64,000 nt of DNA from a plasmid, in the NCBI RefSeq assembly GCF_988242995.1, contig NZ_OZ547044.1; one strand, written 5' to 3'. Below are positions 62,801-64,000 of the stretch, piece after piece (position 1 is the stretch's first letter; each line of letters opens with the position of its first letter). The position numbers were made by a program.

Positions 62801-64000
62801 CTGATGGAGCTGTGTCCGCTGATCATTTCTTATGGCATCCTGTAACGCGCGCTGTTGGTAATGTTAAGAATCAGGGACCAGAGCTCATCGAGGCTGTTGG
62901 CTTATGAGATGTCGGAGGCTGATCCGTGTTTTAAAGCTAATGTACGCATACATTAGCTTTAAAATTAGCCGTGCATCGTAACTAATTTCAATCATCAATA
63001 TGGACAGCTATCACGACAGGGAGATTTTAAAAGCTTCAGACTTATGCATTAAAAGCAGCGCAAGTCTAATAAGTAATTATCATATTGAATATATAATTCA
63101 TTTTTACAATTTATTATTGTTAGGCAGTAAAATTTAATTGTTGAATTTACCTATAAATAAAGATATTAATAAAATGTCTCCATTTTCAATAAAGGAACTT
63201 ATCATGAGCTGGTTTAATGACGTATTTGGATTCGAAGAATCAGACTATGCAGAGACTCAGGCTCGTTTTTTCCAGGAAGGCCCTTTTCTTCATACCAGAA
63301 GCCAGCCATCTGTTTCTTATCGTTCTGGTATTCTGACCATGCCGAGTCTGGCCGAATTAAGGAAAGCGGTCAGCAATCTTGTGACAGAACCGTATGGAAG
63401 GTGCAGATTTGACATACTTGAGGCTGATGCATATGACCTCCACCGAAAATCCGAAGTGAAGGGCGCGCTGATCCAGGTTGCCAGTCAGTTCAACTTACTC
63501 GAAATGCCATGTGAATATACAACGCCAGAAAAGGGGATTACCGATTACCAGTTTGATCATACTCAAGGACCTGCCTGCGCTATGGCCTGTGCTGCTGCCA
63601 CAGTATTTCGTAATTATCTTGTCCCGATGGGGTCACAGACTGGACAATCCACTACCAGCCAGCTTAACACGCTGGCTGATATGGAAAAGGCTATCGGCAT
63701 TGATGGCATACGAATGAAAAACGGGTATGCCCTGATGTCGGCTAATACGGTGCAGGCTATTAGCCGTTATATTGCATCGCTGGATGAGCAAATGCGGGAC
63801 AGGCTCAGACAGGAGTTACGCATCGGATTGCACTCAGATACTGAAGTCACTATACCAGGAGTACCTGAAGATCAGTTTGTGTCTCAGGCTCTCTGCTCTG
63901 CCTTACCTGTCGCGTATAACTCATCTCCCCGGGAAGAATGGGCTCCTTTTGCATCGCTGGTACTGGAAGCCAGTTACGAAGCAACGTTGCTGGCAGGTGT

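Follow-up and report, generated by a model that had tools for sequence, protein, structure and literature searches.

What is encoded by the open reading frame (ORF) that runs off the end of this 64,000-nucleotide stretch of plasmid DNA (contig NZ_OZ547044.1; hereafter, the window)? Translation from the ATG at 63204 proceeds through 265 sense codons and reaches position 64000 with no stop, as a reading made before any database search (the sequence-only reading) had claimed, and the peptide quoted there agrees with our translation. The ORF is indeed missing from the list of stop-bounded ORFs because its frame overruns the window end. It is a real gene, cut by that end, since identical plasmid DNA completes it at 331 amino acids and the frame is under purifying selection. 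Based on structure comparison, its product very probably has the fold of the macrodomain superfamily, with a shape like that of poly(ADP-ribose) glycohydrolase (PARG).

Many Klebsiella and Escherichia coli plasmids match the final 1.8 kb of the window at 100% identity, and these supply the downstream sequence that the sequence-only reading had proposed to obtain. In one of them, NZ_CP020523.1 (locus L001), the complete gene spans 996 nucleotides (L001:10005-11000), and its product, WP_019725651.1, is annotated "hypothetical protein". A Shine-Dalgarno-like AAGGAA, read from the sequence, lies 8 nucleotides 5' of the ATG and supports it as the start. The N-termini of homologs, which all begin M-x-W-F, also favor the start at 63204, and an alternative in-frame ATG at 63174 was rejected on the same basis. 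We compared the gene with homologs from Salmonella, E. coli, and Scandinavium at 62-69% identity: third codon positions dominate the differences (about 73/49/190 by codon position), with pN of 0.18-0.23 and pS of 0.76-0.80. The ORF is under strong purifying selection.

No family had been recognized for this protein beforehand, and sequence-level searches still give nothing. Pfam (including Macro, PF01661) matched neither the fragment, nor the full protein, nor 35 homologs; NCBIfam yielded no relevant match; no PADLOC or PHROGs family was matched; and PDB sequences gave no match by phmmer or with the family profile, even at E<=10 for the profile. We found no paper on this family in the open-access literature. 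The fold, in contrast, is assignable. The protein has a three-layer alpha/beta/alpha arrangement with the mixed central sheet of macrodomains, which places it among them at the fold level, and the closest fold is a PARG-type structure. Thus, of the profile and structure searches suggested earlier, profiles match nothing but structure comparison places the protein with macrodomains. What the gene encodes is a familiar type of protein, a very divergent macrodomain, and not a wholly new system. Database labels are mixed: UniProt calls some relatives "Macro domain-containing protein", a few protist members are automatically named "poly(ADP-ribose) glycohydrolase" though they lack the QEE signature, and one AFDB member is named RNA helicase.

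Conservation and motif counts were taken over 249 diverse family members; identity is 95% or higher at about 50 positions, 40 of which fall inside the window. The most characteristic element is an extended loop 1 that hardly varies, N-x-LE-x(5-14)-P[ED]xG-x3-Y-x2-D-x-TQGPxC, shared by 228 of the 249 members and reading N97-LLE100...P108-E-x-G111...D118-x-TQGPxC125 in the plasmid protein. Further conserved residues inside the window are R136, N173-G-Y175, Q228, and Y258-E259. Just beyond the window end lies the diphosphate loop, T280-x-x-GGGAFGN289, found as T280-x-x-GGG[AV]FGN in 218 members. The program hhalign pairs this loop with the diphosphate-binding loop ISTGVYG of YmdB and with a near-identical string in human PARG, GCGAFGGD (the human fragment used matches PDB 4a0d at 212 of 213 positions). 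Against this fragment and a bacterial PARG from locus L043, only the diphosphate loop aligned, and not significantly (E 0.16 and 0.44, respectively). From the order of motifs and of predicted strands we infer further counterparts: A74-D75-A76 (D in 223 members) would correspond to the adenine-contacting "GDIT", Q91-V-A-S-Q-F-N97 to "QVDFAN" of PARG and "VNAAN" of macrodomains, and C231-S-A-L-P to "HxVGP".

None of the 249 members contains a known macrodomain catalytic signature: by regular expression, the counts are zero for GGG-X6-8-QEE of PARG, for N[AS]AN (the NAAN motif), for the MacroD catalytic loop GGGxDx3H, and for the zinc loop Cx4HxC of Zn-macrodomains (as defined in PMC11490716). 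The extended loop 1 stands where these signatures would be. The nearest structural relatives are bacterial-type PARGs (PF10021, PARG_cat_microb/DUF2263; T. curvata 3SIG and D. radiodurans DRB0099, 5ZDA), from which the family differs in having N-x-LE...PExG...D-x-TQGPxC in place of GGG-X6-8-QEE and about 80 additional residues; neither PF10021 nor canonical PARG (PF05028) matches the family significantly by sequence or profile. Compared with MacroD-type macrodomains (E. coli YmdB, Af1521, human MacroD1/2, viral Mac1), the family lacks NAAN and GGGxDx3H and has an insertion of ~75 residues after strand 3 plus a 67-residue N-terminal extension. Zn-macrodomains (SauMacro/SpyMacro, partners of SirTM) are a precedent for such a replacement of loop 1 (PMC11490716). 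Zn-macrodomain identity itself, an idea that came from conserved Cys/His residues and sirtuin neighbors, was rejected on the zinc-loop count, and the family also lacks the SirTM/GcvH-L/LplA operon.

The missing signatures bring up a non-catalytic role. The protein could be a sensor of ADP-ribose or another nucleotide, like macroH2A or GDAP2-type proteins, that recruits or regulates a partner such as a phosphatase of the PTP class, and the family domain is often fused or coupled to a catalytic partner. However, the polar and acidic invariants cluster in the replaced loop (E100, D118, Q121, C125, R136, N173, Y175), as is typical of an active site, and most members, including the plasmid protein, stand alone. 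Altogether, we regard a pure sensor as improbable.

The family is large and widely distributed, with thousands of homologs of about 335 amino acids that form 3,225 clusters at 50% identity (E<=1e-3). Species-representative bacterial genomes with a member number at least 584 and span many phyla; protists with one are also numerous, among them dinoflagellates, diatoms, oomycetes, and one choanoflagellate. Protist members (P0121-P0123, P0226, P0265, and AFDB matches) are fused to EF-hand, PUB, AN1 zinc-finger, FYVE, or ankyrin domains, and the family may represent a eukaryotic ADP-ribose enzyme that has gone unnoticed. By tblastn, none of 50,697 phage records has a match, on which grounds a phage origin or an anti-phage role was rejected.

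To place the family in its genomic context, we surveyed 86 non-redundant loci by clustering of all ORFs and hidden Markov model searches. The commonest neighbor encodes a DSP-type PTP phosphatase whose HCxxGxxR site is intact; in 17 of 81 informative loci (21%), it is found upstream and on the same strand, mostly overlapping the family gene or within 30 nucleotides of it. Of 37 multidomain members, 8 have a PTP domain (Pfam Tc-R-P/PTP-SAK/PTP-NADK) fused to the family domain, and another combines the family domain with a canonical Macro domain in tandem. Other neighbors are a WYL regulator (six loci), an NrtR-type ADP-ribose-responsive repressor and a Pnkp/PrpE-like metallophosphatase (five each), a SpoT-like HD protein (four), and a Sir2 deacylase (three). 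A KptA/Tpt1 RNA 2'-phosphotransferase gene lies 3 nucleotides upstream of the family gene in L050, and a DarG-like macrodomain gene overlaps its start in L052. In L043, a bona fide microbial PARG with the catalytic signature GGGFLHGARAQEE follows 44 nucleotides downstream; because a true PARG adjoins a family member there, the family and PF10021 PARG are distinct enzymes. All of these neighbors, recurrent or closely linked, are part of the network of NAD/ADP-ribose and nucleic-acid end processing.

Two Rhodobacterales loci include a gene of 150-192 amino acids between the PTP and family genes (L029:4552-5004 and L047:4426-5004). It is unannotated, overlaps the family gene start, is 54% identical between the two loci, and has no Pfam or NCBIfam match. 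In L047 a Sir2 gene follows after 15 nucleotides, and in L029 one lies about 3.5 kb downstream. This arrangement could be a four-gene operon with one uncharacterized component.

The neighborhood pattern fits the activity of bacterial PARGs on RNA ADP-ribosylation; these enzymes act on 2'-OH and phosphate-end ADP-ribosylation of RNA and protect against the toxin RhsP2 (PMC11833690). A parallel to the gene contexts of the family is the PARG operon of D. radiodurans, where a ligase and an HD-phosphatase/kinase accompany PARG. DarG antitoxin and TARG1-type macrodomains are similar in that they too are macrodomains on mobile elements, and they act in nucleic-acid ADP-ribosylation, as we propose for the family. 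The same neighbors also accommodate an enzyme for small molecules, one that deacetylates sirtuin-made O-acetyl-ADP-ribose or processes KptA-made ADP-ribose-1''-phosphate or its 1'',2''-cyclic phosphate. In such a pathway, PTP would remove phosphate, NrtR would sense free ADP-ribose, and the plasmid copy would adjust host NAD/ADP-ribose pools. The adjacent Sir2, NrtR-type, and KptA genes fit this role, as do the Nudix protein adjoining the Scandinavium copy and the presence of "PTP-NADK" among the matched PTP families; the wide bacterial and protist spread and the absence from phages are more like housekeeping than conflict. We consider this alternative possible but doubtful.

In Enterobacteria, copies of the gene are always on mobile DNA. 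By tblastn, the gene is in 342 of 72,556 plasmid records (262 from Klebsiella and 58 from Escherichia), 292 of them predicted to be conjugative, and enterobacterial copies adjoin no PTP and no recognizable ADP-ribosyltransferase or toxin. In IncF plasmids of Salmonella and E. coli, the gene sits just past traX and before repA. Small unannotated genes on the tra-operon strand, without a Pfam, NCBIfam, or PADLOC match, lie between traX and the homolog in these plasmids (112/233 amino acids at L008:4853-5889 and 117/236/102 amino acids at L013:4529-5894), and in Salmonella a PLD-family Nuc-like nuclease comes next. The Scandinavium homolog is chromosomal, in an integrase-AlpA-primase (P4-like) island (L014:7130-13008), where it adjoins the 476-amino-acid Nudix protein, PDC-S11 (a PADLOC candidate, E 4e-163), and a type I restriction-modification specificity subunit; this island looks like a defense-island setting. 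In L001, a 107-amino-acid membrane-protein gene (WP_019725650.1, L001:11073-11396, with predicted membrane helices) begins 72 nucleotides past the macrodomain gene stop. It matches no family in any library searched, and we rejected it as a partner since E. coli and Salmonella homologs do not conserve it.

Carriage on conjugative plasmids suggests another alternative, a plasmid anti-defense factor that destroys immune signals derived from ADP-ribose (e.g., Thoeris gcADPR) or reverses DarT-type ADP-ribosylation of single-stranded DNA at conjugative entry. The macrodomain fold and the adjoining SRAP gene (see below), which encodes a protein of single-stranded DNA lesions, are compatible with it, and macrodomains have been proposed to target ADP-ribose-derived immune signals (PMC9503650). 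However, the gene is outside the plasmid leading region, so an early anti-defense role at entry is unlikely, and the absence of the family from phages argues against a general counter-defense function. Taken together, we find this explanation very unlikely.

On balance, we lean slightly toward the plasmid protein being a stand-alone ADP-ribosyl hydrolase of a PARG-shaped macrodomain clade that protects against foreign ADP-ribosylation. This estimate is for the statement as a whole, in which we infer ADP-ribose binding, hydrolysis, the residue roles, the substrate, and the protective role; the reality of the gene, its fold, the conservation of the family, the missing catalytic signatures, and the gene-context statistics are directly supported. 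The ADP-ribose moiety would most likely be bound in the usual macrodomain cleft, with D75 contacting adenine, N97 the distal ribose, and the T280-x-x-GGGAFGN loop the diphosphate. The ADP-ribosyl linkage would most likely be hydrolyzed through the clade-specific extended loop 1 (E100, D118, Q121, C125), in place of the Gln-Glu-Glu of PARG or the Gly-rich loop of MacroD. In free-living bacteria, the enzyme may often work with a co-translated or fused DSP-type PTP, and this pairing together with the end-healing gene context suggests that the substrate or product carries a phosphate. Candidate substrates are an ADP-ribosylated phosphate end of RNA or DNA, a 2'-OH adduct, and the ADP-ribose-1''-phosphate or cyclic phosphate made by KptA. 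That enterobacterial copies are solo, sit on mobile elements, and lack a transferase suggests that they remove adducts of foreign origin. The plasmid copy may thus be a portable protective hydrolase that strips ADP-ribose adducts from nucleic acids or proteins of the host or plasmid, with the adducts put there by foreign ADP-ribosyltransferase toxins or defense systems. As for function, our leading guess is that it clears ADP-ribose from nucleic acids or guards against toxins.

Several observations weigh against this hydrolase. Neither sequence nor profile comparison gives significant similarity to a macrodomain or PARG model, and structural agreement with PARGs is modest (TM-scores 0.42-0.61). 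With every known catalytic signature missing, the protein may be a binder rather than an enzyme. The residue roles come from motif order and predicted secondary structure, not from superposition. The PTP, KptA, and sirtuin contexts belong to distant chromosomal relatives (42-50% identity) and not to the plasmid copy. Finally, the position outside the leading region and the lack of phage copies, discussed above for the anti-defense alternative, count here too. A more specific proposal is correspondingly tentative, and we think it rather unlikely in full: the family would be a new macrodomain catalytic class, a PARG-shaped scaffold in which the invariant loop 1 has taken the place of the Gln-Glu-Glu loop. 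With a coupled DSP-PTP it would repair ADP-ribose-phosphate adducts at RNA/DNA ends (or at 2'-OH) in two steps, and the solo copy that has spread on KPC-type Klebsiella plasmids would confer portable immunity to the ADP-ribosylating toxins used by competitors or by defense systems.

Hundreds of conjugative resistance plasmids from Klebsiella and E. coli, some of them KPC carriers, have this gene as a fixed part of their backbone, with no annotation beyond "hypothetical". An ADP-ribose-processing identity would give it a concrete, testable function, and such a role would tie clinical plasmids to ADP-ribosylation conflicts among bacteria, toxins, and defense systems. The fold, the general biochemical theme, and the UniProt macrodomain tag on some members are already known; what is distinctive is the family's own putative catalytic loop and its characteristic PTP partner. 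As a large family that Pfam and NCBIfam models do not cover and that lacks every known macrodomain catalytic motif, it could, through its chemistry and its recurrent PTP pairing, reveal a new route to reverse ADP-ribosylation.

Table 1. Features at the end of the window, with strand and supporting evidence.
Feature	Position	Strand	Evidence or note
Macrodomain-family gene, first 265 of 331 codons	63204..64000	+	Translation, conservation, fold; WP_019725651.1
Shine-Dalgarno-like AAGGAA	63190..63195	+	Read from sequence
A/T-rich leader, ~26% GC	62985..63203	+	Travels with macrodomain gene
Perfect 16-nucleotide inverted repeat, 4-nucleotide loop	62929..62964	+	22 nucleotides past SRAP stop
SRAP/YedK-like SOS-response-associated peptidase gene	62257..62907	+	NF007413, E 9e-132

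Upstream of the gene, 296 nucleotides separate the SRAP stop, which ends at 62907, from the ATG. This interval (62908-63203) has 29.1% GC, compared with 55.5% for the window, and only 0.1% of 296-nucleotide windows are as A/T-rich, which bears out the earlier description of some 290 bp of strongly A/T-rich DNA. The only other stretches of the window with GC <=32% over 296 nucleotides are 23661-23966 and 44041-44356. The one sigma-70-like match in the leader consists of a -35 TTTACC at 63146 and a -10 TAAAAT ending at 63175; in a promoter scan, such matches are not above their frequency in shuffled sequence. The regulated promoter envisaged in the sequence-only reading is therefore a guess. Being A/T-rich and next to a plasmid hha gene, the DNA here may be a candidate for silencing by H-NS/Hha. 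A riboswitch or structured leader was rejected, as there is no Rfam match in the leader and its predicted RNA structure shows no excess over expectation (z -0.14). The sequence-only reading had also hinted at DNA-damage regulation. This did not hold up: 62908-63203 contains no LexA box (CTGT-N8-ACAG, up to one mismatch), so SOS/LexA control of the macrodomain gene was rejected, and the nearest LexA-like site precedes the SRAP gene.

The A/T-rich leader is part of the macrodomain module, because plasmids with SRAP alone lose homology at ~62984; leader and macrodomain gene occur together in 278 plasmids. The homology of SRAP-only plasmids ends about 20 nucleotides beyond the inverted repeat, whose arms are TTTTAAAGCTAATGTA and TACATTAGCTTTAAAA and which has no T-run. 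The segment 62900-62990, which contains this repeat, folds at -29.4 kcal/mol (z -4.24). The hairpin is probably the terminator-like end of the SRAP unit and a boundary before the macrodomain module; it may act as a terminator or mark the module junction. A deer isolate carries the block of SRAP, macrodomain, and membrane-protein genes as well, on an IncFIB(K) plasmid that is unrelated. SRAP was nevertheless rejected as a functional partner, since many plasmids are SRAP-only and the E. coli and Salmonella homologs have other neighbors; it is a separate unit and no conserved partner of the macrodomain gene.

The LexA-like site is at 62169-62184 (CTGTACAAATACATAG, one mismatch to CTGT-N8-ACAG) and is the sole such site nearby. 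It lies ~75-90 nucleotides 5' of the SRAP start, within the 3' remnant of a truncated resolvase, and the SOS-regulated gene may be SRAP rather than the macrodomain-family ORF. The recombinase/resolvase remnant occupies 61815-62210, 5' of SRAP. It is abutted by Tn4401/Tn5403/ISKpn6/ISKpn31-type transposon DNA (~44000-61819), a KPC carbapenemase transposon context, and this context marks the window as a pKpQIL-like IncF resistance plasmid of Klebsiella. The junction between the resolvase remnant and the transposon DNA is occupied by IS26 in other plasmids.
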